From IMG/VR virus record IMGVR_UViG_3300043932_000239: a stretch of DNA of 20,000 nt. One strand, 5' to 3'. Within the stretch, counting starts at the first letter, position 1. Each line of letters opens with the position of its first letter. Shown one piece after another: positions 984-18,366 of the stretch. Origin of the DNA: an uncultured virus (IMG/VR IMGVR_UViG_3300043932_000239). Taxonomy: Duplodnaviria > Heunggongvirae > Uroviricota > Caudoviricetes. Under the pieces are notes generated by a model, which was not told the origin of the DNA, searched no databases, and was given only the letters and a program-made list of their open reading frames with translations. The translations under genes were made by a program, and so were the position numbers.

Positions 984-2181
984 AGAGGGGTTGCTGCACG
1001 GTGGTTGAAGCCAACACTCGCTCAGCAGTGGCGAGGTATTCTGCGCTTACATCAAAACCGATATAGCTCCTCTCGAGCTTCTTCGCTGCAACGGCGGTAG
1101 TTCCAGCACCCATGAATGGATCAAGAACCACATCACCAGGGTCCGTTGAGATCGCGATGCAACGCCCAGGAAGCTGAACCGGGAACTGAGCCCCATGCCC
1201 ATCTCGGCCAGAAGAGGTTGGCAAGTACCAGAAGTCACTAAGCTTGTCCGACTCAAGCAGCTGTCGCCCACCAAGGTCTGAAGGTAGCTCCAAGTATGCG
1301 GCCTTGTTGAACTTGGGGGTTCGTTCCCGAGTGAGATGCAGAATGTACTCAACATTTCTGCTGACTCGCGACTGCTGGGGTTCAGGAGTTGTGGCCTGCT
1401 TGCACCACGAGATCGTGCTCTTTACGTAGTAGCCGATTTGGGCAGCACGCTGAGCAATCCGTTGCGGGATCAAACACTGCTCACCATCTTTCAGATACGA
1501 GTGTCCGGCGGAATACCGCAAGTACTCGTGATCTTTCCACGATCGACCATCCTTGCCTTGCATCGCATGCAGTGTCTCAACTGCACTACCCCGGATTTGA
1601 GTGCGAGTGTTGTACGAATCCATGATGTTCCACCACACGGAGCCATCTGCAGCAATTTTCGGAAGCAATGCATGCAAGACCTCGACCGAATGGCGAATAA
1701 ACCCTTCAGGTGTCTGCTCGAGACCAAACGAGCAGTACTCGCCATCCGCCCAAAGGCGCTCACCAGGCTCGTCATAGACCCGCATAGCCCAGTACGGCGT
1801 TGAGGTGACAACAGTATTCACCGAACCATCTTTCAGTCTTCCAATCAGCTGGAGAGCGTCTCCGACAACGAAGGAGTCCTTTTGAATGACCTCTTGACTC
1901 TCGGCAACGAGCACGGCTCCGGTGACGGCTCGACGGAGATATTCAAGAACTCTGCTGCGAGGAACGAACGTCTCGGAGAATGCATCTTGATCTAGAAGTT
2001 GCCGAACGTCGGCCTCGGACAAGATTGACTTCCTGCCAAGGACACGCCTAATGAAGCTGTGAGTCATGCCCACAACGGGGGCAACAAGCTCAATGGGGAA
2101 CACTAAGTCGGTAGTACTGCTGTCGGGGGAGGCGACCGCCGTTTGAGGCTTGATGGTATATGCCTGCTTCATCTCACTCAT
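964..2181 (-). CDS. Beta-class N4-cytosine/N6-adenine site-specific DNA methyltransferase with ~100-aa N-terminal extension
   Basis: Motif IV-like 'VVTSTPYW' precedes motif X/I 'HGAQFPVQLPGRCI...GDVVLDPFMGAGTT..AAKKLERSYIGFDV' (beta order). Start placed at ATG 2181 (alternative 2172), which overlaps the HTH stop TGA (2174-2176), rather than the track start 2271 inside the HTH gene. The 3' end overlaps mcrC by 20 bp. Confidence 0.9.
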   Translation of the reverse strand: MSEMKQAYTIKPQTAVASPDSSTTDLVFPIELVAPVVGMTHSFIRRVLGRKSILSEADVRQLLDQDAFSETFVPRSRVLEYLRRAVTGAVLVAESQEVIQKDSFVVGDALQLIGRLKDGSVNTVVTSTPYWAMRVYDEPGERLWADGEYCSFGLEQTPEGFIRHSVEVLHALLPKIAADGSVWWNIMDSYNTRTQIRGSAVETLHAMQGKDGRSWKDHEYLRYSAGHSYLKDGEQCLIPQRIAQRAAQIGYYVKSTISWCKQATTPEPQQSRVSRNVEYILHLTRERTPKFNKAAYLELPSDLGGRQLLESDKLSDFWYLPTSSGRDGHGAQFPVQLPGRCIAISTDPGDVVLDPFMGAGTTAVAAKKLERSYIGFDVSAEYLATAERVLASTTVQQPLFTAELR

Positions 2182-2431
2182 TACGACCGTCGCCGGTTCC
2201 TTCCTCATAACAGTCTTCAAAAGCCAGAATGTCGTTGGGTGAACAATCCAACGCTTTACAAATCCGCCCAAGTGTCGCGGTGGTAACCGTCTGATTTCGA
2301 CCCAGCTTCGTGATGGTTGATGAGCTCAGACCGGCAAGGTCTCTAAGCTCGCCCTTCCGAATTCCTCTGTCGATAAGCAACTTCCAGAGGTTTCTATAGT
2401 CCTCGCGAGGCGCGTTCGATGTGTCAACCAT
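2174..2431 (-). CDS. XRE/Cro-C1 family HTH transcriptional regulator (probable controller of the methyltransferase)
   Basis: 85 aa, 'YRNLWKLLIDRGIRKGELRDLAGLSSSTITKLGRNQTVTTATLGRICKALDCSPNDIL', a typical Cro/C1-type (HTH_26-like) pattern. Its stop overlaps the MTase start. Confidence 0.9.
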   Translation of the reverse strand: MVDTSNAPREDYRNLWKLLIDRGIRKGELRDLAGLSSSTITKLGRNQTVTTATLGRICKALDCSPNDILAFEDCYEEGTGDGRNE

Positions 2432-2455
2432 GCGGCCAGAATACCATACCGCATG
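2429..2455 (-). promoter_or_regulatory. Putative leaderless promoter (extended -10) with overlapping inverted-repeat operator
   Basis: Minus strand reads TGG-TATTCT (hexamer 2438-2443), then 6 nt, then ATG (2431), with no SD. Inverted repeat CATGCGG (2429-2435) / CCGCATG (2449-2455) brackets the -10 box. Confidence 0.55.
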
Positions 2456-5230
2456 ACTATTCGTGCGATACAGTCAGCTTTGATCAAGGTGTACATTTGG
2501 GCATCGCATGACGCCCTACCGATACTTTTTACACCCTCGGGTGCTGCGGTGACTCGGAAACCCGGATCAGCTCTGCCCGAAGATCCTCAGCGGTCACTTT
2601 GCGTCCTTTCAAAACGCGAGAAACCCCTCGAGCTGCGTCTCTGCGTAGGCACAACGTCTAGCTCAAGGGCCCCAACTTGCTAAAAGCTTTGTAGTTGACT
2701 AGGAGTGCAGATGGTCGTCGGCCCACCTGCAAGAACGAATAGCAAGCGGTATCGCCTACAGGTAGAGGTGCTACCCACATCATTTGTCGAGACCCCGCGT
2801 CTATTCTTGCGCGCGAGATCCCGACTGGTTCACCCCCCCTACGGACGCCAGCCGGGTAGCGACGTGCCAGATACTCAGCGGTACAGCAGGCTAATCTCCA
2901 AACGTCCGCGGCAGCCGGAAATCCCAATTCATAGCCGGTATCGAAGCTGTTCGATGGCCCTGCTCCGCACTGGGGTCTTGTATCCAACGTGACCGGTTGT
3001 GCGAGCCTGCCCTGGGGTCCGGGGCATTCGCGAACGAGGCCGTCAATCAGCTGGCCGACGCCTACCTGGAGCGTCGTCAGGACGAGCTGAATCAGCGCAT
3101 TCCGGCGGATGAGCTGCCCGAGGAACGCCGCCGGGTCAAGGCCTGGATCGCCCTGCACCGCGTCTACGGCGTCGACCTCAATGACACGGCCGTGGAGCTG
3201 GCCGAGGTCTCGATGTGGCTGAACGTCATGCAGCCGAGGCTCGCTGCCCCGTGGTTCGGCCTGCACCTCAAGCGGGGCAACTCCCTGATCGGGGCCCGGC
3301 GGGCCACCTACGACCTGTCAGCGCTGAGGAAGTCGAAGTCCAAGTGGTGGAAGACTCCGCCCGAGGATCGCGGGCTGGCCGACGTGCCCCTCGGGGGTCT
3401 GGAGAAGGGCAGCATTCACCACTTCCTGCTGCCCAGCGACACGTGGGGAGCCGCGGCCGGGGCGAAGCAGGCGAAAGAGCTGGCGCCCGAGCAGGTCGAC
3501 ACCATGAAGACGTGGAAGCGGGGGATGCTCCGCCAGCCGACGGCCACGCAGGTCAAGACATTGGCATCGTTGGCGCGGCGGGTCGAGCGCCTCTGGGAGA
3601 TCGCCGCCAAGCGCCTGGAGATCAGCGAGGCGGAGGCCTCGCGCGACATCGACGTGTGGGGCCGTGAGGCGGAGCCCAGCCATTCGAATGTGACGCGCGA
3701 ACAGATCGAAAATGCGCTGGCAGACCCGGACTCGATGTACCAGCGCCTGCGCCTGGTCATGGACGCGTGGTGCGCGTTGAGTTTCTGGCCGCTGGACCAG
3801 GTTGACCAGTTGCCCACGTGGCAGGAGTGGCTGGCGACATGCACGGACCTGCTCGGCATCGAGACCACGGACAAGGGACAGAACGAGGACTTCCTGACGC
3901 AGGGGAACGACTTCGACAAGCTCGCTGAGATTGAGAAGTTCGAGCGGTCGTTCCACCGGATGCCGTTGATGTTCGAGATTCAGGGGGCGCACCCGTGGCT
4001 GGCGACTGTGCAGGAGATCGCCGCGCGCGAGGGCTTCTTCCACTGGGAGTTGGACTTCGCGCAGGTCTTCGGGCGCGGAGGGTTCGACCTGCAGGTGGGA
4101 AACCCGCCGTGGGTGAGGCCGGTGTGGAAGGACAGTGCGACCCTGGCCGAGTTCGACCCGTGGTTCCTACTGGAGGAGAAGATCCCGGAGAGAGCGTTCC
4201 GCGATCGCCGTGGCCAGGTACTGGACGCACCGATGGCGCGGGACAAGTACCTGTCGGATCTGACGTCGGGGACCGCGACCTCGACGGTGCTGGGCGATAG
4301 AGTCGAGCATCCGGTCCTCGCAGGCCTCCAGACGAACCTCTACATGAACTTCATGGAGCGGACGTGGCGGTCGATGGCGCCCGCGGGGATCGTCGGACTG
4401 ATCCATCCGGAGGGCCACTTCCTGGACCCGAAGGGCGGTGTGCTGCGGGAGAACACGTATCGAAGGCTGCGAAGGCATTGGCAGTTCTCCAATGAACTTC
4501 AGCTTTTCCCTGAGGTCCACCATATGACCGTGTTTGGTGTTCATGTTTATGGTCCACCGAATGAACCTAATTTCAAGCAGGCCGTTGGATTGCTGAACGT
4601 GTCGACACTTGACGGATCGCTTCGCGATGACGGGCGGGGAGAAGAGCCTGGAATCCAACACGCTTCCGGTGGATGGGATATTCGCCCTCATCGTTCTCGA
4701 ATTCTGGCTGTCGATACTGATGTGTTGACCACGTGGGGATCTTTGTTTGATCCGGAAGGAATTCCTGCAGTTCAGGCTCGAATGGTTCGGCCTTACCTTC
4801 GTGAGCATCAGGAGGTGCTGGATCGCATCGCCTCCTCGGCGAGTCGTCCCGGGGAGAACATTGAGGTCTCAAGCGGTTGGCATGAAAAAGGAGCCAAGCA
4901 GGACGGATATATCGAGCAGGCGAAGACAGAGGCTGAGTCTTGGGACGAGGTGATCCTTCAAGGCCCGCTGTTCTATGTGGGGACTCCATTCTATAAGAAT
5001 GCGCGCCCGTCGGGCTTCAAGAACAGCGACTACGACCTGTGGGACCTGGACGAGATTCCTGAGCGCATGATTCCTCGGACAAATTATCGTCGTGCGTGCG
5101 ACCGGAAACGATATGACGCGGGTATGGATCGGTGGGACGGGCGACCGAGTTGGGACTACTGGCGCCTCGCAGTGAGGAGCATGACGCAGGTGGGGCTTGT
5201 TCGCTCTCTTGTCCCCGCTTTGATCCCCCG

Positions 5231-5303
5231 AGGTGCGGCACATGTCGATGCGGTACACTCGTGTACCGCATCGACATGTGCCGCACCTGCACATGTCCAT
5301 GCG
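5231..5303. repeat. 58-bp near-perfect palindrome plus third direct copy, inside the MTase coding sequence
   Basis: AGGTGCGGCACATGTCGATGCGGTACAC (5231-5258) - TC - GTGTACCGCATCGACATGTGCCGCACCT (5261-5288): 28/28 complementary. GCACATGTCCATGCG (5289-5303) repeats 5238-5252 with 1 mismatch. Confidence 0.97.
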
Positions 5304-5329
5304 CGAAAATCTCCTGACGGAGATTTTCG
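5304..5329. repeat. Perfect 11-bp hairpin inside the MTase coding sequence
   Basis: CGAAAATCTCC (5304-5314) - TGAC - GGAGATTTTCG (5319-5329). Confidence 0.95.
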
Positions 5330-6202
5330 AACGTATTCGACGGCGCCTGAAGACTCGTTGGCGACCGTCCTGACGTGTGGGTTGTGGTCGTCTCTCCCCT
5401 ATGACTTCTTGACGAAGGTCTCAGGACAGACGCACGTCCATCCCGAGTTCATCCAGAAACTCCCCAGCCCGACGAAGCACCCCGCCTGGCCCTTCCTCCT
5501 TCTCCGCACGCTGCGCCTCAACTGCCTGACGCGGGACTACGAGGACCTGTGGAACGCGCTGGCCCCATTGACAGTGGCTGGGGATTCCTGGACACCCGCA
5601 TTCGCCGACTGGCCGCAGCTCACCGTTCCCACCGGTGAATGGACATGGGACATCCCGCTTCGGTCCGATTTCGAGCGGCGGGCCGCGCTGGTCGAGACCG
5701 ACGCGCTGGGCGCGATCATGCTCGGCCTGACCGCCGAGCAGCTGTGCCTGATCTACCGCGTCCAGTTCGGCGTCCTGCGCAAGTACGAGAACGACATGTG
5801 GTTCGACGGCCAAGGCCACCAGATCGCGAAGGACCACCACGCTTACGGCGTCCACCAGGAGAAGACGGATTTCCCGACGCTCATGGACTACGTGGCCGCC
5901 ATGGAGGACGCGGGGCTGGATGCGCAGCGGGACCAGCCGAGCGACGCGATCCGCACGGACGCCAGGTTCTCCGCGTTCCTCGAGCACTATGAGGCGCCGT
6001 TCGTGAAGGCCGACCGGGAACGCGAGATGACGCTGGCGCACGAGGAATTCACGCGGCGCCTCCAAGCCGCCGGGCTGCTCCTGGCCGACGGGTCCGAGGC
6101 TCCGGGCGCCGAGGCCGTCGACGCGCAGGCGGTGCTGGAAGGCCGCCTGCCGTTCACGCCGACGCCAGGGGACCGCGCCATCGATGAGAGGGAGCGTGCG
6201 TG

Positions 6203-9200
6203 ATGACCCAGCCCACGGAGACGCCCTCGTCCGTGTTCGCCGCGACGGCGCCGTTCGCCCCCACTCTGCCCAGCCTGCTGGCGGAGGAGGTCCAAGACGC
6301 GCTCACGGAGTACCTGACGACCACCTACGCGCTGGGCGACCAGGAGACGCGGGACGCGCTCGGGCGCTTCCTGCGCGACCCGGAGACGGGGATCTTCCGC
6401 GGGCCCTACTACCGGCTGCGCCTGCCGTTCCGGCCCGCACCGGAGGGATGGCGGAACCCGCTGGGCTGGCTGCCCGACAGGTTCGTGCCCCACGCCCACC
6501 AGGCGGCGGCGTTCGACCGGCTGACCTCGCTGGGGCGCGTTCCACAGCCCACCCTGGTCACCACGGGCACCGGGTCCGGCAAGACGGAGTCGTTCCTGCT
6601 GCCCCTGCTGGACCACGCGCGGCGCGCGGCGGCCGAGGGCGCTCCCGGGATCACCGCGCTCGTCCTGTACCCGATGAACGCGCTGGTCACCGACCAGGCG
6701 CGACGCATCGCCGACTACGTCGCGTCCAGCCCGGAGCTGTCAGACGTCCGTGTCGGGCTCTACATCGGCGGCAACGGGCGAAACCGCACGATGGGCGCCG
6801 ACCACATCATCGATCACAGGGAGGAGCTCCAGGCCCGCCCCCCGCAGATCCTGCTGACGAACTACAAGATGCTGGACCTGCTGCTGCTGGACCCGCGCCA
6901 CCGCGGACTGTGGGCGGGTGCGGCGGAGTCGCTGCAGTACCTGGTCCTCGACGAGTTCCACACCTACGACGGCGCGCAGGGCAGCGATGTCGCCATGCTC
7001 CTGCGGCGCCTCGGCATGGCGCTCGGGATCGCGGAGGAGGGGCGGCCGCTGGGGCGCGTGACGCCGGTGGCGACGTCCGCCACCCTGGGCGATGCCGGGG
7101 ACACCGCGCCCATGCGGGAGCTCGCGCGGACCGTGTTCGGCTGCGACTTCCCGCCAGACTGCGTGATCACCGAGAGCCGTCGGACGCCGGAGGAGTTCCT
7201 GCCCCCCGACGACGAGGGCTCGCACGACCTGGTCCCGCCCCGGCCGGAGGTCCTGGCCGACCTGCCGGCGCCGGAGTCGGAAAGGCCGGAGTCCTGGATC
7301 CCGCTGGTCCGGTGCGTGTTCGGTCAGCGGGCCACAGAAGTCATGAGCGGAGGCCTGCCCGATCCGGTGCTCGTCGGCCATCTGCTCACCAAGCACCCGG
7401 TGACGCGCCTGCTCCTGGAGGCCATGGGCACACACCCCGCGGCCCCGGACGCCATCCTACGGACCCTCCAGGTGCGCACCCTCAACCTGTTCCCGTGGTA
7501 TTCGGATGACTCGGCGGTGCAGGCGCGCAACATCCGGGCCCTGGGCCGCCTGCTCGCGTTGTACTCGTTCGCGCGAGTCCAGACCCCGCGGGGCCTGCGC
7601 TCCTTCCTGGAGGTCCAGGTCCAGCTGTGGGTCCGCGACGTCTCCCATCTGCTGCGCGTCGTCGACGAGTCGCCGCGGTTCAACTGGGAGGTCGGGGCGA
7701 ACCGGGATCCCGAGAGGAAGTACCTTCCTGCGGCGTACTGCCGAACCTGCGGAGCGTCAGGGTGGATGTCGATGGTTCAGGAGGCCTCCGACGCGCTGGA
7801 GGCCGGGGCGGGGGAGATCTGGAAGGCGGCGCCGGACCTGCGTCGGCGCTCGCGCATTCGCGTCCTCATGACCGGAGGGGAGGACGCCGACTGCCGGTAC
7901 CTGGACCCCGACACCCTGGAGCTGCTCGGCCCGGCCACGCCCGCGCAAGATCGCGAGGAGAAGCACCTCATCCGGGTCCACACGCCGCTGACCGGCGACG
8001 ACGCGACGCGGGAGACCTGCCCGGCCTGTGGGTCCCGGGACTCCGTGCGATTCGTCGGGACGTCCGCTGCGACGCTGCTGTCCGTGTGCCTCACCCAGGA
8101 ATTCGGGTCCACCCACCTGCCGGAGAGTGAGAAGAAGACCCTGGTGTTCACCGACTCCGTCCAGGACGCCGCGCACCGCGCGGCCTTCATCGAGGCGCGC
8201 GCCTTCACATTCAACCTGCGCGGGGCGCTGGTCAAAAAGCTCGGGGAGTTGGGCGGGGCCGCGACATTGACGGATTTGGCAGACTCCCTGGGCCGCGGGA
8301 GGGCCGGCCGCGGCCGCCTGGACGACAAGGATCTCTACCTGGTGACACCGCCGGACTTCACGCGGCGCAGGAACCTGAGCGGGACCTGGCTGACCCCGGA
8401 CCCCAACGGCGAGAAGCACAAGAAGCTGGCGGAGCGCCTGGTCCAGGAGACCCATCTGGAGGCTGGGCTGGGCTCCCGGATCGGCCGAACGCTGCTGATG
8501 ACGGGCACCTGGTCCCTGGACCTAGACGTCGACGTCCAGGGACTGGCCGAGGAGATGGCGGAGGCCCACCGGAACTCTCAGGGGTTCCTCCCGGACTCGA
8601 ACACCGGGGAACGGACCGGGACCCAGGCCTATGCCGTGTGGATCTACGGGGTGCTCTCGCACCTGCGCGAGGCCGGCGGCATCTCCCACAGCTACCTCAC
8701 GCGGCTGAGGCAGGGAAACCTGGCCCGCTGGCACGTGGGCGGTGGCGCACGCGGGACGGACATGCGCCGGTTCGGGCCCGGCCGACCCGCCCCCGGATTC
8801 CTCTCCGCCGGAGGCGCGGCTCAAGACCGTGGCCGCGAGACTGACGAGATCCCGTTGAGCGGGACGACCCGCACGTGGCTGGGGGACTGGACGCGGAAGT
8901 GCCTGGCGGACACAGGAACGGGCGTGGGGCGCCTGCTCGGCGACCTGGCGGAGGCGTGCGTCCGTCGCGGGGTCCTGGACCGGGTGGCCATGAAGAACGG
9001 CGGCCTCAACTTCGGACTGCTGCCCGACAAGGTCCTCGTGTCCCTGGAGGAACCCGTCCGGCTCGCGTGCTCGGACTGCGACCACGTCGAGATCGTGGCA
9101 CCCGGGCGCGTCACCCTGTGGGAGGGGGCCCCGTGCCCCCGGATGCGATGCATGGGCACCCTGTCCGTCGCCACGGAGGCGCGGCCGGAGGGCACGTTCT

Positions 9201-12200
9201 ACCGCGAGCTCTACCGGCAGGGCATCCGCCGGATCATCGCCCGGGAGCACACGGCCCTGCTGGAACGCGAGGAGCGGGAGGACCTGGAGCGCTCCTTCAT
9301 CCAGAACACCTCGCCCGTCGACCCGAACGTCCTGGCCTGCACGCCGACCCTGGAGCTGGGCGTCGACATCGGCGACCTGTCCACCGTCGCCCTGGCGTCG
9401 GTCCCACGGACGTCGGCGAACTACCTCCAGCGCGTGGGCCGGGCCGGACGCTCCGACGGCAACGCCTTCGTCCTGACCGCGGCGCACGTCAGGCCCTCCA
9501 CCGAGCAGCGATTCGCGGATCCGCTGGACCTCATCGACGGACCGGTCCGCCCGCCCGCCGCCTACCTGCGGGCCACCGAACTGGTGCGCCGCCAGTTCCT
9601 GGCCTCCGTCCTGGACCGCGCCTCCCGCACCGGGGAGCTCGGCTCCGCGCCCGGCCTGTACCCGGAGCTCATGCGCCAGGGACTGGAGGAGGGGACCTGG
9701 CTGAGACGGCTCGTCGACCTGGTGCGGGCCGACGGGCCCGCCCTCGTCGATGAGTTCCTGTCCGCGTTCCCGCCCGAGGCGCGCGACTCGCGCGACTCGT
9801 TGCTGGCGTACGCGAGCGACGAGCTGGAGGGGCAGTGCCAGGACCTCATCGACCGGTGGCAGGCGAAGCGGCGGACGCTGCGCGCGCGCATCGACGAGGT
9901 CTCCCAGACCGTGAGGGACCTGGAGGGTCGCGGGCACCTGGACGACTCGGAGAAGAACGACCTGGACCGGTGCCGGGGCGAGGTCCGCGGGCTGGTCCTG
10001 CAGAGCGAGCGGCACAACGGGACCAGTCGCAGCCAGGACCCCGAGGAGCTGTTCACCTCGATGGCGCGGGAGGGGCTGCTCCCGACCTACAACCTGGTCG
10101 ATGACGGGACGGACCTGGAGGCCCACCTGTGGTGGCGGGCGGAGGACGACTCGACGACGGCGAAACCGGAGGCCCTGGACCTCACGTACTCCCGCCCGGC
10201 GGAGACCGCGCTCACCGAGCTGGCCCCCGGGTCCTGGTTCTACGCCGGCGGGCGCCGGCTCCAGGTCGATGCCGTCGAACGCGGCATCATCGGGGACGAC
10301 GCCCCCGCGATGCGCGCGATCTGCCCGGACTGCGGGTGGCTGGGCGACCTCACGGACGTGTGCCCCCACTGCGGGTCCGTCGGCGTGGCCGAGGTCGGGC
10401 AGCACGCCGTCACGATGCCGTTGAAGGCCGTGAGCTCCCAGGCGAACCTGGACGACACGACGATCACGGACCAGCAGGACGAGCGCGTCCGCACCCGCTA
10501 TCTCACGGCCACCTCCATCGAGGCGGAGGAGGTGACCCGCGCCTGGCGGTCGACCCGCACGACCTTCGGTGCCGAGATGCTGGGCCGGGCGACGATCCGC
10601 CGCTACAACCTGGGGAGGCCGGTATCCGGGGGACGGCGCGTGAGGATCGCGGGTGTGGAGTACTCGGCCCCCGGGTTCGAGGTCTGCGCCGGGTGCGGCG
10701 TCGTCCGTGAGCGTGAGCAGGCGGAGGACCGGGTCCGTCACCGCGGGTACTGCCCCTCGCGCCGAGGAGTGGAGACCGACTACGACACGATGTACTTCAC
10801 CCACACCCTGTCAACCCAGGCCGTGCGGATTCTGCTGCCCGAGCTGGCGGCCGTGGACGACGCCGAGCGGATCGCGTTCCAGGCCGCCGTGCAGCTGGGG
10901 GTGCGGGAGGACTTCGGCGGTGACCCGCACCACCTGACGGTCGACTCGCCGGTGGAGAGCGGTGAGGAGGGGCGGCGCGCCTACCTGGTGCTGGCCGACA
11001 CCGTGCCCGGAGGCACCGGCTACTTGGACCGCTACGCCGATCCGGCCGCCCTGCGCGAGATCCTTCAGAAAGCCCGGACGGTCCTGGAGACCTGTCCATG
11101 CAACGAGACCGGACAGGACGGGTGCCACCACTGCGTGCTCGGGGTCGTCGGGGACGCCGACCTGGGCTCCGCCTCCCGGGACCGCAGCCTGTCGGCGATC
11201 ACGGCCCTGCTGGACGACTGGGAGACGGAGGACATCGGCTCCCTGGATGACATCGACATCGAGCAGCACCCGGAGTCCGTCTTGGAGGCCCACTTCATGG
11301 ACTACCTCCAGCAGTGGACGGAGGCGCGTCGCGGTCGATTCACCCGGGCCAGGGGGGCCGGAGGATTCCGCAACGGGCATCTCACGATCGAGGTCGACGG
11401 GCAGGTGCGCACGTGGGACGTCCGCGCGCAGGGACACGCCGGGTCAGGGTCGCTGCAGACAATGCCGGACTACCGGCTGTCCCGCCCGGACGTCCCGGGT
11501 TCGTCCACGATCGAGGTCTACCTGGACGGCCAGCGCTACCACGCGAACATCGGGGACACGAACCGGACGGCGGACGATGCGCGCAAACGCAACGGGCTGC
11601 GCGGTGACCGCCATCTGGTCTGGTCGCTGAGCTGGGACGATGTCGAATCGGCGCTCACTCGGTTGACGAACCCCGCGAAGGCCGAGGACGGGGTGTGGCT
11701 CCCCCCGGAGACTCGCGCGAAGGTCGCGGCCGCACTCCCAGACGATGCCGGCAAAGTGAGCGCCCTCGCGGGCGGCCCCCTGGAGCTGTTGACCACGGTC
11801 CTCACGGACCCGGACTCCTCGTTCTGGGGGCGCAGCGCCCTGGCCCTGGCGAAGGTCCTCATGATGACGGGGAGAGGCGCGAGTTCCGTGCGCCCGGTTC
11901 CCGTCGCCCACTCGCGCGCGCAGGCGATGGTCGATGCCATGGTGAGAGAGACCCTGGGGTTCGATGCCGTGCCCGTTCCGCGTGGAACAGCCGCGGACTC
12001 GATGATCGCCTCAACACAGGGGCCAAGCGGGCTCCCCGTGTGGGTGCTTTCCGGGGTGGTGCCCGCGGAGATCGACGACCACCTGGGGATCCTCACGGTC
12101 CTGGACGACCGGGACGGGGTGAGCGGGGGCGAGGACCACCTGGCCCAGTGGCAGGATTGGCTGCGCCTGTCGAACATCCTCCAGATGCTGGTCGTCACCC

Positions 12201-12742
12201 CGGACGGAGGCGGGCACACCGGACGCTACTTCGGGGCGTGGACCGCGAAGAGTCTGGCGGACTTCGAGAGCCAGGACCTGCCGCTCACCCATATGGGCGA
12301 GGAACCCGTGCTCGTGCTCGCCGGCGTGGGGCATCCGGAGCAGCGCAGCGCTGCGGAGCCGGTGCCTGCGCCCGCCCCGGGCGCTGTGCCGACGCCGGAG
12401 GCGGCGCCCGGCGGAGCCGGGCCGTCCTCGTCGATGGGGGAACCCGACCCCGCCTGGGATAAGGCGCTGGAGTTGTGCGTGGCCAGTATGCGGCCCTTCC
12501 TCGAGGACATCCGGGCGGCCGGTCTGCCCGCGCCGGTCGTCGGCGAGGAGCTGGAGTCGGGGGAGACGTTCTTCCCCGTCGAAGCGCAGTGGGGTGTGGA
12601 CGGTGCGCTGGTCGCGCTCAATCCGGAACCGGATGCGGAGCGGGACGCAGCCCTGGTGGCCGCGGGATTCACCGTCCTGGACGTGCGCATGGGAGTGGAG
12701 CGCGTGATCGCGGCGCTTGCGAGGGAAGGAGCTGACCGATGA
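6203..12742 (+). CDS. Large SF2 DEAD/DEAH (YprA/DrmA-like) helicase fused to DUF1998/MrfA Zn-binding domain and a C-terminal restriction-endonuclease-like domain
   Basis: Motif I TGTGSGKT, Ia LYPMNALV.DQ, 'ILLTNYKMLD', II DEFH, III SAT, 'FTDSVQDAAHRA', V 'TPTLELGVDIG', VI 'QRVGRAGR'. Several CxxC pairs. DUF1998 'DTVPGGTGY...CPC....DGCHHC' (~10990-11135). Nuclease-like 'PDY.L......IEVYLDG..YH...DD..KR..LR.....VWSLSWDDV' (~11460-11645). TGATG overlap with the MTase stop; SD GAGAGGGAG at 6186-6194. Confidence 0.93.
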   Translation: MTQPTETPSSVFAATAPFAPTLPSLLAEEVQDALTEYLTTTYALGDQETRDALGRFLRDPETGIFRGPYYRLRLPFRPAPEGWRNPLGWLPDRFVPHAHQAAAFDRLTSLGRVPQPTLVTTGTGSGKTESFLLPLLDHARRAAAEGAPGITALVLYPMNALVTDQARRIADYVASSPELSDVRVGLYIGGNGRNRTMGADHIIDHREELQARPPQILLTNYKMLDLLLLDPRHRGLWAGAAESLQYLVLDEFHTYDGAQGSDVAMLLRRLGMALGIAEEGRPLGRVTPVATSATLGDAGDTAPMRELARTVFGCDFPPDCVITESRRTPEEFLPPDDEGSHDLVPPRPEVLADLPAPESERPESWIPLVRCVFGQRATEVMSGGLPDPVLVGHLLTKHPVTRLLLEAMGTHPAAPDAILRTLQVRTLNLFPWYSDDSAVQARNIRALGRLLALYSFARVQTPRGLRSFLEVQVQLWVRDVSHLLRVVDESPRFNWEVGANRDPERKYLPAAYCRTCGASGWMSMVQEASDALEAGAGEIWKAAPDLRRRSRIRVLMTGGEDADCRYLDPDTLELLGPATPAQDREEKHLIRVHTPLTGDDATRETCPACGSRDSVRFVGTSAATLLSVCLTQEFGSTHLPESEKKTLVFTDSVQDAAHRAAFIEARAFTFNLRGALVKKLGELGGAATLTDLADSLGRGRAGRGRLDDKDLYLVTPPDFTRRRNLSGTWLTPDPNGEKHKKLAERLVQETHLEAGLGSRIGRTLLMTGTWSLDLDVDVQGLAEEMAEAHRNSQGFLPDSNTGERTGTQAYAVWIYGVLSHLREAGGISHSYLTRLRQGNLARWHVGGGARGTDMRRFGPGRPAPGFLSAGGAAQDRGRETDEIPLSGTTRTWLGDWTRKCLADTGTGVGRLLGDLAEACVRRGVLDRVAMKNGGLNFGLLPDKVLVSLEEPVRLACSDCDHVEIVAPGRVTLWEGAPCPRMRCMGTLSVATEARPEGTFYRELYRQGIRRIIAREHTALLEREEREDLERSFIQNTSPVDPNVLACTPTLELGVDIGDLSTVALASVPRTSANYLQRVGRAGRSDGNAFVLTAAHVRPSTEQRFADPLDLIDGPVRPPAAYLRATELVRRQFLASVLDRASRTGELGSAPGLYPELMRQGLEEGTWLRRLVDLVRADGPALVDEFLSAFPPEARDSRDSLLAYASDELEGQCQDLIDRWQAKRRTLRARIDEVSQTVRDLEGRGHLDDSEKNDLDRCRGEVRGLVLQSERHNGTSRSQDPEELFTSMAREGLLPTYNLVDDGTDLEAHLWWRAEDDSTTAKPEALDLTYSRPAETALTELAPGSWFYAGGRRLQVDAVERGIIGDDAPAMRAICPDCGWLGDLTDVCPHCGSVGVAEVGQHAVTMPLKAVSSQANLDDTTITDQQDERVRTRYLTATSIEAEEVTRAWRSTRTTFGAEMLGRATIRRYNLGRPVSGGRRVRIAGVEYSAPGFEVCAGCGVVREREQAEDRVRHRGYCPSRRGVETDYDTMYFTHTLSTQAVRILLPELAAVDDAERIAFQAAVQLGVREDFGGDPHHLTVDSPVESGEEGRRAYLVLADTVPGGTGYLDRYADPAALREILQKARTVLETCPCNETGQDGCHHCVLGVVGDADLGSASRDRSLSAITALLDDWETEDIGSLDDIDIEQHPESVLEAHFMDYLQQWTEARRGRFTRARGAGGFRNGHLTIEVDGQVRTWDVRAQGHAGSGSLQTMPDYRLSRPDVPGSSTIEVYLDGQRYHANIGDTNRTADDARKRNGLRGDRHLVWSLSWDDVESALTRLTNPAKAEDGVWLPPETRAKVAAALPDDAGKVSALAGGPLELLTTVLTDPDSSFWGRSALALAKVLMMTGRGASSVRPVPVAHSRAQAMVDAMVRETLGFDAVPVPRGTAADSMIASTQGPSGLPVWVLSGVVPAEIDDHLGILTVLDDRDGVSGGEDHLAQWQDWLRLSNILQMLVVTPDGGGHTGRYFGAWTAKSLADFESQDLPLTHMGEEPVLVLAGVGHPEQRSAAEPVPAPAPGAVPTPEAAPGGAGPSSSMGEPDPAWDKALELCVASMRPFLEDIRAAGLPAPVVGEELESGETFFPVEAQWGVDGALVALNPEPDAERDAALVAAGFTVLDVRMGVERVIAALAREGADR

Positions 12743-14952
12743 CCCGGTCGATCGTCATGTCGAAGCAGTTCGCCGACGAGACGGCGAAGATGGATGGGAC
12801 CCTCAAACAGAAGGTGCTCACCTTCATGGGGAAGTTCCAGCGCGGCGTCGACGGGGGGCTGGACCTCAAGCAGCCGAAGAGCGCGCGGAGCAGCGCGGTG
12901 TTCACTGCGCGCGTCAACGACAACTACCGGGCGGTCCTGGCCGATGTCGGGGGCGAGGCATGGGCGCTCATCAGCGTGCGGCCGCACGATGACGCGTACA
13001 CGTTCGCCGGGACGCTGCGAGTCGAGGTCAACCCCCGGACCGGCGGATTCGACATCATCGACGAGACGGCCCTGGCCACGGCGCGGGCGCTCGCGGCGGG
13101 GACGACGCGGGTGGCGGAGGCGCCGGACGCGCCCACCGTCCAGGAAGCGACGACGGAGCCAGAGCCTGAGCTGGTGGAGTTGGATGAGGATGAGCTCCTG
13201 TCGGTCGGGCTGGACCCGGAGACGGCGCATTCGCTGGCCGGGTCGGCCAACCGGAGGCAGGCCGAGGCGGTGGCGGAGAACCTGCCGACCGCGCAGGGGG
13301 CGGCCTTACTCGACGTGCTGGCGGGACGGCCGATCACGGAGATCCAGGCGGACTACATGGCGCCGGAGCCCGTGGACACGGGCGATGTCCAAGCGGCGCT
13401 CAAGCGGCCGGTGTCACAGATGACGTTCGTCGACATGGAGGACGCTCAGGCCGTCCAGGCGGCGATGAGCGGCAGCCTGGAGGCGTGGCGGGTGTGGTTG
13501 CATCCGGCGCAGCGGGCGCTGGCCGACCACGGACCGTGGAAGGGATCCTTCCGCGTGACGGGGGGCGCCGGGACAGGCAAGACGGTGACCGCGGTGCATC
13601 GGGCCGTCCACCTGGCGTCCCAGCCGGGGCTGACGCGTGTTCCCGGAGCCCGGTTCGCGCCGGTCGTGTTCGTGACGTACACGCGGAACCTGGCGACGGC
13701 GATCGAGTCGCAGGTGCGCACCGTCATCCGCTCGGGCGACGTCACCGGGGACGAGGCCGCGAAGAAGGAGCAGGACCGCGTCGCCCACAACATCGAGGTG
13801 CTGAGCACCGACGCGCTGGCGCGGCGGATCGCGGACCTGGACCCGGCGCTGGCGGAGGTCGTGGGAAAGGGACGGCCGGCGACGTCCACGGAGCTGGGGC
13901 GTGCGTGCGCGGACGCCGTGATCGGCACGTCGGTGGAGCCGGGGTTCCTGGCCGAGGAGTGGGAGCAGGTGGTTCTCGGCGGAGGTCTCACCTCGCGGGA
14001 TCAGTACCTGGCCGTCGCGCGGTCGGGACGAGGGCGGCGACTGTCGCGGGCCCAGCGCGTCGAAGTCTGGACGTGCGTGGACCGGTTGACCACGGAGCTG
14101 TCCGTGATGAACCGGTATACGTGGGAGCAGCTGCGGGATCTGGTGGCGCGGGCGCTGGAGGCGGATGAGCGGGAGGACGGCTCTGGAGCGGGACTACGGG
14201 CTCGGACCGGCGTTCGGCACTTGGTTGTCGACGAGGCGCAGGACCTCACGGCGTCGCACTGGCGGATGCTGCGGGCGTTGGTGCCGGCGGGGCCCGACGA
14301 CCTGTTCATCGCGGGCGACGCCCACCAGCGGATCTACGGGCGGCCGGTGCCGCTGTCGCGGTTCGGGATCGAGACGCGAGGGCGTTCGCGTCGGCTGACG
14401 GTCAACTACCGGACGTCGCGGGAGATCCTGCGGTGGTCGCTCGGAGTGGCGGACGTTGGGGCCGATGATCTGGATGACGAGGTGGACCCGTTGACGGGGG
14501 AACGGTCGGTGTTCTCGGGGCCAGCGGTGGACGTCATCGGGCAGGGTGCGCTCGCGGACCTGGGCCGCGATCCTGATGGAGCGATGGTGCGCTGGATCAG
14601 GGGTCTGCTCGACGAAGTGGATGACGACGGTGCGCGGAAGTACTGGCCGCGCGACATCGCCGTGGTGCGGATGGACAACCGCGGCGTGGCGGACACCGTC
14701 GGGGTGCTCGCGGACGCCGGTATCGACGCGGTCGAGGTCAAGGGCGGCACCGACGAGGAACGCCTGGACGACGCCGTGCGCGTCATGACCATGCACCGGG
14801 CGAAGGGTCTGGAGTACAAGGCCGTCGTCATCCGCGACGGCGACCAGATGCCGTCCGAGGAGGAGGCGGCGCGTGACGTGGAGAAGCGGAGGTTGCGGAA
14901 CCTGTTCTACGTGGCGGGGACGAGGGCGCGGGAGAGGTTGCTGGAGTGTTGA
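12739..14952 (+). CDS. UvrD-like SF1 helicase with N-terminal RelE/ParE-like domain
   Basis: 'VWLHPAQR', Walker A 'GGAGTGKT' (~13561), 'VTYTRNLA', 'VVDEAQD', 'AGDAHQRIY', 'LTVNYRT', 'VMTMHRAKGLEY', 'LFYVAGTRARERL'. The first ~90 aa ('IVMSKQF...KQKV..FMGKF...GLDLKQ...VFTARVNDNYRAVL') resemble a RelE fold. ATGA overlap with the upstream helicase. Confidence 0.9.
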   Translation: MTRSIVMSKQFADETAKMDGTLKQKVLTFMGKFQRGVDGGLDLKQPKSARSSAVFTARVNDNYRAVLADVGGEAWALISVRPHDDAYTFAGTLRVEVNPRTGGFDIIDETALATARALAAGTTRVAEAPDAPTVQEATTEPEPELVELDEDELLSVGLDPETAHSLAGSANRRQAEAVAENLPTAQGAALLDVLAGRPITEIQADYMAPEPVDTGDVQAALKRPVSQMTFVDMEDAQAVQAAMSGSLEAWRVWLHPAQRALADHGPWKGSFRVTGGAGTGKTVTAVHRAVHLASQPGLTRVPGARFAPVVFVTYTRNLATAIESQVRTVIRSGDVTGDEAAKKEQDRVAHNIEVLSTDALARRIADLDPALAEVVGKGRPATSTELGRACADAVIGTSVEPGFLAEEWEQVVLGGGLTSRDQYLAVARSGRGRRLSRAQRVEVWTCVDRLTTELSVMNRYTWEQLRDLVARALEADEREDGSGAGLRARTGVRHLVVDEAQDLTASHWRMLRALVPAGPDDLFIAGDAHQRIYGRPVPLSRFGIETRGRSRRLTVNYRTSREILRWSLGVADVGADDLDDEVDPLTGERSVFSGPAVDVIGQGALADLGRDPDGAMVRWIRGLLDEVDDDGARKYWPRDIAVVRMDNRGVADTVGVLADAGIDAVEVKGGTDEERLDDAVRVMTMHRAKGLEYKAVVIRDGDQMPSEEEAARDVEKRRLRNLFYVAGTRARERLLEC

Positions 14953-14995
14953 TCATCTGAGTTGCGCGGAGCACGACCCGGTGAAAGAGGCACAG

Positions 14996-15019
14996 TCGAT
15001 ATAGGAGTACTCATATCGA
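14996..15019. promoter_or_regulatory. Bulged palindrome upstream of the GIY-YIG gene (possible operator)
   Basis: TCGATAT[AG]GAGT|ACTCATATCGA has 11-bp arms with a 2-nt bulge, in an AT-richer intergenic gap. SD-like GAGAGGAAGGG follows before ATG 15047. Confidence 0.35.
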
Positions 15020-15046: not shown

Positions 15047-16033
15047 ATGCCGCAGGGTAAGCAAGTCAAGATGTTCCTTGTTGACGGAACGTCGAGCGGG
15101 CTGGTAACTGCGCAGATCACGAACTGGACCGGACACGTGATGAAGGGGCTGCGGCGGGATTTGGCCAGGATCCGAAAGCGCCCGGAGGCGACGCGCACGG
15201 GGGTCTACATTTTGTTGGGACCAGACCTTGAGGTGGCCGATGGCACCTTGGCCTACATCGGGCAAGCCGATGAAATCGCGAAGCGCTTGGGCCAACATGA
15301 CAGGGATGAGGACAAGAACTTCTTCCAGGACGTGGTTGTCATCACGTCGAAGGATGAGAACTTGACGAGTGCCCATGTCCGGTACTTGGAGGCACGGCTC
15401 ATTGCCATCGCGAAGGCTCAGTCGCGAGCTCGGCTGACCAACGGGAATGACGCTACTCAGGTGTCGCTCCCAGAGGGCGATGTCTCGGACATGGAGTACT
15501 TCATCGAGCAGTTGCGGATGTTGCTTCCTGTCCTTGGAGTCAACCTGTTTCGTGGTCGAGCGGCCGAGAACGCTGCGGCAGCGAAGTGTCAAGCAGTTCC
15601 CACGAAGAATGAACATGGTGATGGTTGGCAGTCTGGATCCGTGAGGGAAGACTCACCGGTCTTTCACCTCCGCCTGAAGAAGTGGCATGTCGACGCCTCT
15701 GCACAGGTGGTTGACGGAGAGTTCACGGTACTGCAAGGGTCGAGTGCCCGAAAAGACATGCCGGATGCCTCCGACGCGATGGCAATGAGCACCTCCAACC
15801 AGCATCGGCTCCGTCGAGCACATAGGCGGAGACTCTTTGATGATGGGACGCTTCAAGTCGACGGAGATGCTGCCAGGTTCACCCGTGACTGCGTGTTCTC
15901 TTCCCCGTCGATTGCGGCAGCCGTCGTGGTAGGGCGCGCGAGCTCCAATGGCCGGATCGAGTGGAAGGACGACAAGGGACGAACTTACGGCGAATGGGAA
16001 TCTGATGACACTAATGAGTCGCCGGAGACCTGA
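15047..16033 (+). CDS. GIY-YIG nuclease family protein with C-terminal DUF4357 (RAMA-like) domain
   Basis: 'TGVYILLG...AYIGQAD.I.KRL.QH...K.FF..VVVITSKDENLT.AHVRYLEARLI...LTNGN'. C-terminal 'FTVLQGS.A...FTRDCVFSSPS.AAAVV.GR.SSNGRIEWK...G.TY'. Confidence 0.9.
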   Translation: MPQGKQVKMFLVDGTSSGLVTAQITNWTGHVMKGLRRDLARIRKRPEATRTGVYILLGPDLEVADGTLAYIGQADEIAKRLGQHDRDEDKNFFQDVVVITSKDENLTSAHVRYLEARLIAIAKAQSRARLTNGNDATQVSLPEGDVSDMEYFIEQLRMLLPVLGVNLFRGRAAENAAAAKCQAVPTKNEHGDGWQSGSVREDSPVFHLRLKKWHVDASAQVVDGEFTVLQGSSARKDMPDASDAMAMSTSNQHRLRRAHRRRLFDDGTLQVDGDAARFTRDCVFSSPSIAAAVVVGRASSNGRIEWKDDKGRTYGEWESDDTNESPET

Positions 16034-16085
16034 GAACTGTGGCTTCTCCCGAACGTTGCGAGGGCGAGCCTTGAGTCATGCCCGT

Positions 16086-16817
16086 TCAGTGGCACATGTC
16101 CGCAGCGGCACCGTCCTCGTCCGTCGAAGGACGTCGCCAGCAGAGTCGCTGGGCGTCGGCGACGAAGCGTTCCCAGGAATGACTGGTGCCCACAGGACCC
16201 TTGGCTTGAGCACAGATGCTCTGCGCGATCTGTTCGGAATCGGACTCACGATAGGTTCGTGTCGTCTTCCCGGTGAGCGCAATGAGGCGACCCTTCGGAT
16301 CTGAGATTACCTCGACGTCTCCGCCTGGGAAACGAAGATCCCTCCAAGCGCCGGGTGCGACAGCTCGGACGGCGTCGGGGAAGAGAAACCACCAGGCTTC
16401 GGTCATCTGCACCGGGACGACCGGGATCGATGTGAACTCCCCGAGATACTTCGCGACATCCCGGGTGAGGGCATCATACTGAGCTCCCGCTGGGTCAGGC
16501 CCGTCAGCATCTCTGTGGATGACAATTGCGATGACGCGGGCGAGTTCCCCTCTCGCCACCTTCTCCACGTTCGACAGCCAGCTGCGAACGGCGTTGTCCC
16601 GCGCCGTACGCGTGAGAGAGACGGGCCGCTTCATCGCCTTGATGTCGCAGGTCCTGGCGAGTTCGGAGTTGACGAACCGGAGGAGGTGTTTGAGGGCTTT
16701 CGCGTCGTTGCTCCCCTGGGAGCCGGCGGCCCTCGTCCCTTCGCCGAAGACCAGAACGACGGGACGTCGGCTGTGTCGGGCAGCGCCACGATCGTCGTTT
16801 GAGTACCTCCTACTCAT
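16086..16817 (-). CDS. TOPRIM-fold putative nuclease (DUF4276/RloB-like), partner of the ABC ATPase
   Basis: 'VVLVFGEG...ND...LKHLL' (TOPRIM Glu), 'IVIHRDADG' (DxD), 'PVVPVQMTEAWW', 'VEVISDPK..L', 'Y.ESDS..IA'. Start reassigned to ATG 16817, which overlaps the ATPase stop TAG (16810-16812). Confidence 0.72.
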   Translation of the reverse strand: MSRRYSNDDRGAARHSRRPVVLVFGEGTRAAGSQGSNDAKALKHLLRFVNSELARTCDIKAMKRPVSLTRTARDNAVRSWLSNVEKVARGELARVIAIVIHRDADGPDPAGAQYDALTRDVAKYLGEFTSIPVVPVQMTEAWWFLFPDAVRAVAPGAWRDLRFPGGDVEVISDPKGRLIALTGKTTRTYRESDSEQIAQSICAQAKGPVGTSHSWERFVADAQRLCWRRPSTDEDGAAADMCH

Positions 16818-18039: not shown

Positions 18040-18188
18040 GTTGCATATGCTACCGACAGAACGTGTTGAACTCGGGGGATCCCGTCGGAGATGCCAGTGA
18101 CTCTCGGTAGGATCATGAACGGGCATGGTCAAAGCCCTCAGGGAAACCGCCGGACGTGTCGCCCGGGGCGAAGGGGCACGACGTCGAT

Positions 18189-18366
18189 ATGACGAATCAT
18201 GAGCTGATCTACCAGGCGTTGCTTGTTGTCGTGCCGAAGTATCTGGCGCCGTATGTCAGGTGGCGTCTTGACAACGCTTTTGGCGTCGGCAAATGGGGAC
18301 CGGCGCTCTCCATGACCCGGACCTCATCGGGGAGGACCGGTGACCTGATCCACTGGAACGACGCTA
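18189..18366 (+). pseudogene. N-terminal stub of a Swt1-like HEPN domain protein, truncated by the IS
   Basis: 'MTNHELIYQALLVVVPKYLAPYVRWRLDNAFGVGKW...WNDA' resembles the start of Swt1-like HEPN proteins (N..I..AL..L...L.PYV...L......W...D). It runs into the IS inverted repeat at 18367. Confidence 0.5.

Follow-up and report, generated by a model that had tools for sequence, protein, structure and literature searches.

A prophage with two serine recombinases splits the methyltransferase gene of a predicted actinobacterial ARMADA type II system at motif I

Introduction

ARMADA is a described anti-phage system whose type II form, in the cited passages of a preprint (Bell et al. 2025, bioRxiv 10.1101/2025.09.15.676423), has four components in strict order: ArmA (BrxHII/SNF2), ArmB (a PglX-like methyltransferase, MTase), ArmC (a YprA-like helicase that has a Vsr nuclease at its C terminus and often inactive EEP and Vsr domains behind it) and ArmD (a RelE-like domain fused to a GajB/UvrD-like helicase). 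Here, 20,000 nucleotides (nt) of the uncultured Caudoviricetes record IMGVR_UViG_3300043932_000239 (hereafter the window) are analysed; they are predicted to hold the last three genes of such a system from a high-G+C actinobacterium, the MTase gene being split by a prophage.

The same passages report that ARMADA in Escherichia coli protects against 13 of 80 phages, acts non-abortively and needs all four genes (bioRxiv 10.1101/2025.09.15.676423), a requirement confirmed for strain EDL933 in the cited part of a second study (PMC13463889). In both sources deletion of armB abolished defence, as did the substitution N971A (bioRxiv 10.1101/2025.09.15.676423; PMC13463889); for the GxG mutant G605A the preprint passages give a partial loss of protection only (bioRxiv 10.1101/2025.09.15.676423). 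E. coli tolerates the armB deletion, the mutants having been grown, and armB is the variable gene of the ARMADA island across 426 E. coli genomes, as stated in the cited part of the second study (PMC13463889). The YprA homologues of ARMADA are closest to those of Druantia according to the preprint's abstract (bioRxiv 10.1101/2025.09.15.676423). A first-pass annotation of the window, made from the letters alone, had described ARMADA as "recently proposed"; by these accounts the system is already validated, deletions and point mutations having been tested in two strains of E. coli.

Prophages with serine integrases can disrupt genes, as SPbeta does in spsM. Integrative and conjugative elements (ICEs) of Streptococcus carrying serine-integrase triplets insert in hsdM, with repeats of 2-8 bp, in the cited passages of Ambroset et al. 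2016 (PMC4701971).

Results

Three coupled genes in ARMADA type II order

Three long open reading frames (ORFs) occupy the plus strand of the window at 2997-6203 (1068 aa), 6200-12742 (2180 aa) and 12739-14952 (737 aa). The first two overlap by 4 nt within GTGATG at 6200-6205, where the stop codon TGA (6201-6203) overlaps ATG (6203-6205), and the last two share ATGA at 12739-12742, with a Shine-Dalgarno-like GAAGGAG at 12725-12731. These coordinates and junction sequences bear out the coupling by TGATG and ATGA overlaps that the first-pass annotation had described. Among the translations, the first has the motifs GSG and NPPW, the second GTGSGKT and DEFH, and the third GAGTGKT. Pfam and PADLOC searches agree with the annotation on an MTase, a helicase with DUF1998 (DEAD, Helicase_C and MZB) and a UvrD-type helicase, and its match to ARMADA (SNF2, MTase, YprA-like, UvrD) was correct, the genes standing in the published type II order B', C, D. 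The genes and their domains are as follows.

3000..6203, plus strand: armB', 3' part of the ARMADA MTase gene (PADLOC PDLC03611; BLASTP and blastn against the Actinomyces provencensis locus)
4584..5289, plus strand: diverged block in armB' (ArmB' residues about 530-765), without a megablast-level match to the A. provencensis locus
6200..12742, plus strand: armC, YprA-family superfamily 2 (SF2) helicase (Pfam, PADLOC, PDB search, structure model)
6497-7090, plus strand: DEAD domain of armC (Pfam)
9236-9454, plus strand: Helicase_C domain of armC (Pfam)
10880-11137, plus strand: MZB/DUF1998 domain of armC (Pfam)
about 11270-11818, plus strand: predicted Vsr-like PD-(D/E)xK nuclease domain of armC (VIA-align on the model)
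about 12434-12739, plus strand: predicted second Vsr-like domain of armC (VIA-align on the model)
12739..14952, plus strand: armD (Pfam, PADLOC GajB models, Foldseek)
about 12739-13065, plus strand: predicted RelE-fold N-terminal domain of armD (model and Foldseek)
about 13504-14940, plus strand: UvrD/GajB-like superfamily 1 (SF1) helicase part of armD (Pfam UvrD-helicase, UvrD_C and AAA_19; PADLOC GajB)

A search of species genomes with ArmC yielded 80 actinobacterial loci, and the four proteins of the closest one, A. provencensis (90% ArmC protein identity, 88% nucleotide identity), were run against all 80 by tblastn. The A. provencensis locus has four coupled genes, armA (1086 aa), armB (1635 aa), armC (2186 aa) and armD (768 aa), its armA being an SNF2 gene (PADLOC DrmD, 2.5e-85). 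The gene armD lies at most 1.5 kb downstream of armC in 73 of the 73 loci with at least 2.5 kb of downstream DNA; ArmB is encoded upstream of armC in 54 of the 65 loci with about 10 kb of upstream DNA, 43 of which also show ArmA, and 11 of the 65 have neither upstream. Conserved co-occurrence of MTase, helicase and UvrD genes, which the first-pass annotation had named as the check on its reading, held among these related loci, in conserved order.

Judged by sequence, the three coupled genes are therefore the last three (armB', armC, armD) of ARMADA type II, and what is new here is an actinobacterial member of a published family, the system itself being already known. Compared by published description, as far as the cited passages go, the locus resembles the ARMADA type II of E. 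coli NCTC 12900 and EDL933 in the order and domain content of B, C and D, in an ArmC with fused DUF1998, Vsr-like nuclease tail and second Vsr-like domain, and in a large, PglX-like and variable ArmB whose GxG and NPPW motifs are about 365 residues apart. It differs in its actinobacterial host at 70% G+C, in the interruption of armB by a prophage and in that armA was not seen.

Among the 54 loci with ArmB, the gap between armB and armC is at most 108 nt in 27 and filled by inserts of 0.25-8.4 kb in the other 27. Genes of other defence systems are frequent in the inserts, which carry GmrSD in L009, L020, L022, L060 and L061, HTH-DUF5753 regulators in L014, L030, L040, L057 and L071, and elsewhere McrBC (L058), AAA_21 ATPases (L017, L042), a DprA-like gene (L002) or insertion sequence (IS) elements (L055). 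This junction looks like a cargo hotspot among the actinobacterial loci, in contrast with the strict order published for type II.

Domain composition of ArmB', ArmC and ArmD

The first ORF contains an Eco57I/MmeI-type methylase in Pfam, and its best PADLOC model is REase_MTase_IIG PDLC03611 (E 3e-216, profile positions 555-1473 of 1532), followed by the DrmMI and PglX models. BLASTP aligns it to A. provencensis ArmB at 79% identity from residue 560, the start of the Cys-Glu-Pro-Ala-Leu-Gly-Ser-Gly of motif I, and armB' runs from that motif (CEPALGSGAF) through NPPW to the stop codon, corresponding to residues 560-1635. Its TTG "start" at 2997 falls within prophage DNA, 3 nt ahead of the integration junction at 3000. 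The first-pass annotation was right about the MTase identity of this ORF but could not see that a prophage interrupts the gene, of whose roughly 1635 codons the ORF supplies those from 560 on. A PglX-like MTase gene directly 5' of armC is what ARMADA type II has, though here that gene is split at residue 560.

Within armB', the flanks of 4584-5289 are 84-88% identical to A. provencensis, and the block itself aligns far more weakly at the protein level and has lower G+C; it is likely, from these sequence features, the target-recognition region, and looks exchanged. Window ArmB' also has a 17-residue insertion (HVDAVHSCTASTCAAPA) relative to A. provencensis. Separately, a 90-nt tRNA-Gly(CCC) called by ARAGORN at 5595-5684 is probably spurious, lying inside the conserved armB' frame and having no Rfam tRNA match. 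At 4076-4121, many short metagenome contigs have loose ends in all four runs compared; this patch encodes the NPPW motif IV of ArmB' and is probably common to the MTase genes of other organisms.

ArmC unites DEAD, Helicase_C and MZB (DUF1998) in one 2180-aa ORF, in keeping with the central YprA-family helicase of ARMADA type II, a single protein with fused OB-CON-DUF1998, and its PDB matches include two helicases of about 2000 residues (9tu7, 9wae) and Bacillus subtilis YprA (6znp; phmmer E 3.2e-15). Its last 541 residues were aligned with 51 homologues and the window copy was modelled, with a pLDDT (predicted local distance difference test) score of 82.6. An exhaustive VIA-align search ranked four proteins of the restriction-endonuclease fold first for residues 52-234 of this tail, BsoBI (Z 8.5), I-Bth0305I (Z 8.4), Vsr (1cw0, Z 8.0; root-mean-square deviation 3.2 with 112 residues aligned) and NGO0050 (Z 7.8), and matched the last 100 residues of ArmC to the nuclease domains (N-domains) of AbaSI (Z 6.7) and PvuRts1I (Z 6.3). 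Invariant Glu, Asp, His, Asp and Arg columns among the 51 homologues are located in the first of these nuclease-like domains. The C-terminal nuclease-like domain that the first-pass annotation had seen on the fused helicase-DUF1998 protein would thus, on the model, be Vsr-like in fold rather than of the phospholipase D (PLD) type, and the modelled tail fits the "active Vsr plus degenerate domains" pattern of the published passages.

For ArmD, 43 N-terminal segments were aligned and the window copy was folded (pLDDT 88.6). Foldseek matched the modelled head to the toxins YafQ, RelE and YoeB (E 3e-5 to 1e-3, prob 1.00), so that the earlier RelE label on this gene holds at the level of fold; the combination of a RelE-like head with a UvrD/GajB-like helicase is that of type II ArmD.

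The armB gene is split by an insert of 49,010 nt

Homology between the window and the A. provencensis locus (blastn) begins exactly at 3000 and runs to 14936. Upstream of 3000 the armB frame is closed by stop codons, and G+C steps from 0.52-0.55 on the left to about 0.70 over 6000-15000. Window 1-5271 corresponds, in reverse and at 99.98% identity, to the first 5271 nt of IMG/VR contig L088 (G402), which is 52,046 nt long with a CheckV completeness of 100. The other end of G402 encodes ArmB residues 307-560, 94% identical to A. provencensis (E 9e-161) and free of stops. On the far side of the insert, this 5' part is oriented like armB' and shares its 6-nt core; the METHYLTRANSFERASE gene has been split rather than truncated. 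The features at the break are:

3000..3005, plus strand: core TGCGAG, encoding Cys-Glu in motif I of ArmB; each prophage end has a copy, the uninterrupted gene a single one
2960..2999, plus strand: P arm of attR, forming a dyad with the P' arm from the prophage's other end; this P arm is 97% identical in metagenome contigs L081-L083
1..2999, no strand: right-hand (attR-side) prophage end (overlap with G402/L088, Pfam, composition)

In window orientation, the left junction reads ..GAGTTTCGCGTC-TGCGAG-ACTTTCATG.., the right junction ..CCGGTTG-TGCGAG-CCTGCC.. and the uninterrupted A. provencensis site ..CGCGTC-TGCGAG-CCCGCC.., and the insert between the cores measures 49,010 nt. The reconstructed attP is an imperfect dyad centred between TGCG and AG, in which 15 of 25 symmetric positions pair (a value reached by 30 of 2000 shuffles). 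A short shared core, an intact attB elsewhere and dyad symmetry of attP are together what is expected of a prophage integrated by a large serine recombinase.

Metagenome contigs show both states of the site. In run X3, a 10,299-nt contig spans 1000-3077 with 0 differences and bridges the join by 77 nt; a contig of run X12 (1021-3029), which reaches only 29-30 nt past the junction, was left out of the bridging count. Another X3 contig has, before 3000, a 24-nt loose end that encodes ..EDILEFRV and equals the 24 nt preceding TGCGAG in the 5' half of armB. This loose end is the empty site, and uninterrupted armB co-occurs in sister metagenome runs. Run X6 contains the window from 3000 onward only, at depth 178, and over 3000-4066 it shows 0 differences. 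Among JGI metagenome contigs, no exact match to the 40-mer at window 3000-3039 was found.

The 373 nt to the left of the break (2632-3004) recur in metagenome contigs L081-L083. Other identities for this piece were tried and rejected: an IS or miniature inverted-repeat transposable element (MITE), as it has no terminal inverted repeats; a structured RNA, its fold z-scores being +0.67 and -0.61 and no Rfam family reaching the gathering score in the window; and IS200/IS605-like, IS91-like or group II intron origins, which were dropped once serine integrases and attP symmetry were found. No PLSDB plasmid matches it, and of 401 Actinomycetota genomes just 4 gave hits, all of them short and due to chance. 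Contigs of runs X3 and X5 match only the 36 nt at 2801-2836, with unrelated sequence on both sides. At the point corresponding to the window boundary between 2669 and 2670, L081 (10311-18364) and L082 (1667-9720) hold an extra block of 8,054 nt, in which lie ECF/ABC transporter genes together with an IS256-family transposase. The 8-nt direct repeat ACTTGACC flanks the block, and the window has neither block nor repeat.

The insert encodes a temperate siphovirus-like phage

The gene content of the insert was taken from Pfam searches on 43 ORFs of G402. Structural and lysis genes comprise a large terminase, a portal, a ClpP-type protease, a head-tail connector, a tape measure, a tail endopeptidase/fibre, a holin and an amidase with CW_7 repeats; replication and regulation are represented by DNA polymerase A, a D5-type primase, an Enc34-type ssDNA-binding protein, a DUF2800 nuclease, an antirepressor and a ParB-methylase. 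Two tandem genes with Resolvase, Recombinase and Zn-ribbon domains (G402 47358-48908 and 48909-50498), 38% identical to each other, stand within 0.8-3.9 kb of attL, and a Hypoth_Ymh gene is also found beside the left junction. Defence-type cargo near the right junction includes Abi_C, an ABC-3C set (CTD11, MC7, DUF2326), a McrB-like AAA_5 protein, McrC and an N6_N4 methylase, and window 1-2999 is its final stretch. From its gene content, the insert is identified as a siphovirus-like temperate prophage of 49,010 nt with two large serine recombinases. The part inside the window contains:

3-983, plus strand: McrC-like gene (Pfam/PADLOC)
964-2271, minus strand: N6_N4 DNA methylase (Pfam/PADLOC)
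2174-2431, minus strand: small ORF, XRE-type HTH-like (translation, by eye only)

Related integrases recur at motif I of DNA methyltransferases

A search of IMG/VR with the second integrase gave 582 matches, of which 80 loci were kept and 72 checked, the index locus and seven partial matches being left out. At least 1.2 kb follows the integrase in 48 of these, and up to three ORFs per locus (115 in total) were passed to Pfam. MTase 5' fragments on the expected strand occur in 7 of the 48. Two (L097, L114) have MmeI_N and MmeI_hel only, as MmeI-like genes, and four (L113, L115, L123, L140; hsdM) have HsdM_N and N6_Mtase profile positions 2 to 44-53 of 311. The seventh, L099, has by sequence the same armB 5' half as G402, joined to a different phage with an integrase 67% identical and a different P' arm.

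In all eight 5' fragments (these seven and G402), the Asp/Glu codon of motif I is the last of the host frame, with the terminal residues ..VYE, ..IYE, ..VYD, ..CLE, ..FFE or ..VCE, and in the phage arm beyond it the conserved element GATAC(A/G) comes after about 20 nt. On the 3' side, the right arm of L081 is joined to CDPAAGTGGML.., the part of an HsdM that begins with motif I, to which PDB HsdM chains align from their residue 195-250, and hsdS and hsdR come next; that of L082 abuts CDPACGCGNFL.. of an MmeI-like gene, whose Pfam MTase match starts at profile position 24. With the window prophage counted on both sides, eight 5' and three 3' junctions in three MTase families fall at the same codon. 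In L083, the right arm, TGCGAA and the left arm are joined, 42 nt of the left arm being present at 90% identity, and this join looks attP-like in sequence.

The contig L082 also holds, at 388-1602, a 5'-cut serine recombinase gene with 83% DNA identity to the G402 integrase region, abutting the shared 38-nt piece, and looks like a decayed relative of the prophage. Eight loci with about 52% integrase identity (L127, L133, L144, L145, L148, L150, L153, L154) have, immediately after the integrase, an ORF of the class A beta-lactamase family; an rve integrase-core ORF comes next in L133, L144, L150, L153 and L154, and for the remaining three the scan covered the beta-lactamase-family ORF alone. 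This subgroup looks like a different kind of element.

As in the Streptococcus ICEs, to the extent the cited passages describe them, tandem large serine recombinases, insertion inside a coding gene, a very short repeat (6 nt here) and an hsdM target are seen. Unlike those ICEs, the present element is a tailed phage with two integrases and an ARMADA MTase as target, and its clade uses the corresponding codon of motif I in MTases of three families. In the literature covered (titles, abstract openings and cited passages), no account was found of a lineage of phage integrases directed to motif I in several MTase families, or of an ARMADA gene holding a prophage; the study of the Streptococcus ICEs (PMC4701971) came closest.

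A host-side defence island to the right of armD

The region 15047-19148, right of armD, is a host-side defence island as judged from its annotated genes (Pfam, NCBIfam and PADLOC):

15047-16033, plus strand: PDC-S14 (GIY-YIG/DUF4357), E 7e-112
16086-16967, minus strand: HEC-01B-like gene
16810-18132, minus strand: HEC-01A AAA_21 ATPase, the HEC-01 pair matching at E 8e-115 and 8e-25
18378-19148, minus strand: DDE transposase

Discussion

With high confidence, the locus is read as an ARMADA type II system of a high-G+C actinobacterium, represented in the window by armB', armC and armD, in which armB is split at motif I by a serine-integrase prophage and the system is most likely off in the lysogen. 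In such a system ArmB, by the E. coli work a large N6-adenine MTase with a specificity region of its own, would mark or recognise DNA, ArmA and ArmC would translocate on invading DNA, and ArmC would cut it with the assistance of ArmD. Site-specific recombination by one or both of the tandem serine recombinases would have inserted the phage, with crossover inside TGCGAG, the cut falling at the codon of the acidic residue of the S-adenosylmethionine-binding motif I. The 5' part of armB lies about 49 kb to the left, outside the window, presumably with armA, and the phage brings defences of its own (McrBC, a Type II MTase, an ABC-3C system and an Abi_C protein). As with other serine-integrase elements inside genes, precise excision could be expected to rebuild the interrupted armB.

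By analogy with E. coli, where ArmB is essential for defence, ARMADA is most likely off in this lysogen; loss of function is also expected because the cut parts strand beta1 (ILEFRV) from the GxG loop and leaves the 3' part without a ribosome-binding site. It is unlikely that the system still works, with the halves of ArmB reassembling or ArmC and ArmD acting without methylation: armC and armD are indeed intact and coupled, and the E. coli G605A mutant of the GxG motif lost protection only partly in the published passages, but armB' has no Shine-Dalgarno sequence and only a fortuitous TTG, beta1 and the GxG loop are on separate fragments, and in those same sources armB deletion or N971A abolished E. 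coli defence.

A Druantia system centred on DruE, or a DISARM variant, is a very unlikely identity for the three genes. PADLOC scores lend it some support, the best models for ArmC being DruE3 (2.9e-82) and DruE1 (8e-76), with DrmA far behind (5.9e-15), while ArmB' matches DrmMI and ArmA of A. provencensis matches DrmD. In Druantia, DruE has a PLD or inactive Vsr tail and is accompanied by DruH (type III), DruA-D (type I) or DruM/F/G (type II); no such partner gene stands beside armC in the window or in A. provencensis, however, where its partners are ArmB and ArmD; no DrmB or PLD DrmC gene is found; and the published ARMADA YprA homologues are, by the preprint's abstract, themselves closest to those of Druantia (bioRxiv 10.1101/2025.09.15.676423). 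DISARM class 1 (DrmA, DrmB, DrmC, DrmD, DrmMI) shares with the locus an SNF2 helicase (in the relatives), an adenine MTase and a YprA-family helicase with DUF1998, but here DUF1998 is fused to the helicase, the predicted nuclease is Vsr-like and not PLD, a RelE-UvrD gene is added (next to armC in 73 of 73 relatives), and the helicase is nearer DruE than DrmA by PADLOC scores.

An initial alternative was that of a deletion remnant, in which armA and the first 560 codons of armB were lost and a dead three-gene fragment was left beside unrelated low-G+C DNA. Within the window, the purely foreign DNA upstream of 3000, the stops in the armB frame and the G+C step agree with it, but it was overturned by the finding of residues 307-560 in open frame beyond the insert, 49 kb off, oriented alike and next to the shared core, and by the insert being a complete phage with integrases; it is now highly improbable. 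Least probable of all is an assembly chimera joining phage and Actinomyces-like chromosome at 3000, which would explain why several runs cover just half of window 2000-4000 (share 0.49) and why the phage and host parts differ in G+C and depth, but not the separately assembled X3 contig that bridges the join without mismatch, the complementary halves of one gene and duplicated core at attL and attR, or the second, different phage joined at the same armB position in another record (L099), half-holders being expected anyway if non-lysogens and related phages occur in other samples.

Several observations weigh against the reading of an ARMADA type II system switched off by a prophage in its MTase gene. 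ArmA was not seen: G402 ends within armB at residue 307, without an ArmA homologue, and because it stops there a complete system in this genome is assumed from the relatives. G402 and the window are the same DNA (99.98% over their overlap) and not independent. The 2023 PADLOC release has no ARMADA profile, so ArmC was named by DruE models, and its presumed place in the type II subclade of the published YprA tree draws on PADLOC rank (DruE above DrmA) and gene context. The VIA-align Z of about 8 for the Vsr-like domain is near the tool's stated background level, Foldseek against the PDB gave no match at E <= 0.001 for the whole 541-residue ArmC tail, and a Pfam sequence search detects neither this tail nor the RelE-like head of ArmD. 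As to recurrence, no MTase fragment was found in the other 41 of the 48 integrase loci among the at most three ORFs scanned in each, and a second copy in L083 forms a further junction whose flank is not recognisably an MTase. Run contigs, which drop rare forms, show no excised circle and no loose end with the left phage arm behind 3005, and empty and filled sites together may therefore reflect a mixture of strains rather than excision.

The codon shared by these 5' and 3' junctions suggests that this integrase lineage was selected to land in defence MTases. A wider proposal is put forward tentatively, as possible and still rather doubtful: that the integrase clade (at least 50% identical across IMG/VR) uses the motif I Asp/Glu codon of N6-adenine MTases as a near-universal attachment site, that lysogeny selectively and safely disarms methylation-dependent defences (hsdM of Type I restriction-modification, MmeI-type, armB of ARMADA) while the phage installs its own, and that excision restores them, the whole forming a prophage-operated switch. 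HsdM, MmeI-type enzymes and ArmB are each needed for both restriction or defence and methylation, and cutting them would therefore not be self-toxic.

For annotation, "truncated" defence MTases that start at motif I may be prophage junctions and not products of decay. What the locus presents is a temperate phage caught inside the one gene essential for ARMADA defence, at the most conserved stretch of DNA adenine MTases. If the proposal is true, serine integrases with a predictable and widely distributed target would exist in nature, and integration itself would be a natural form of counter-defence and a candidate reversible switch of host immunity.

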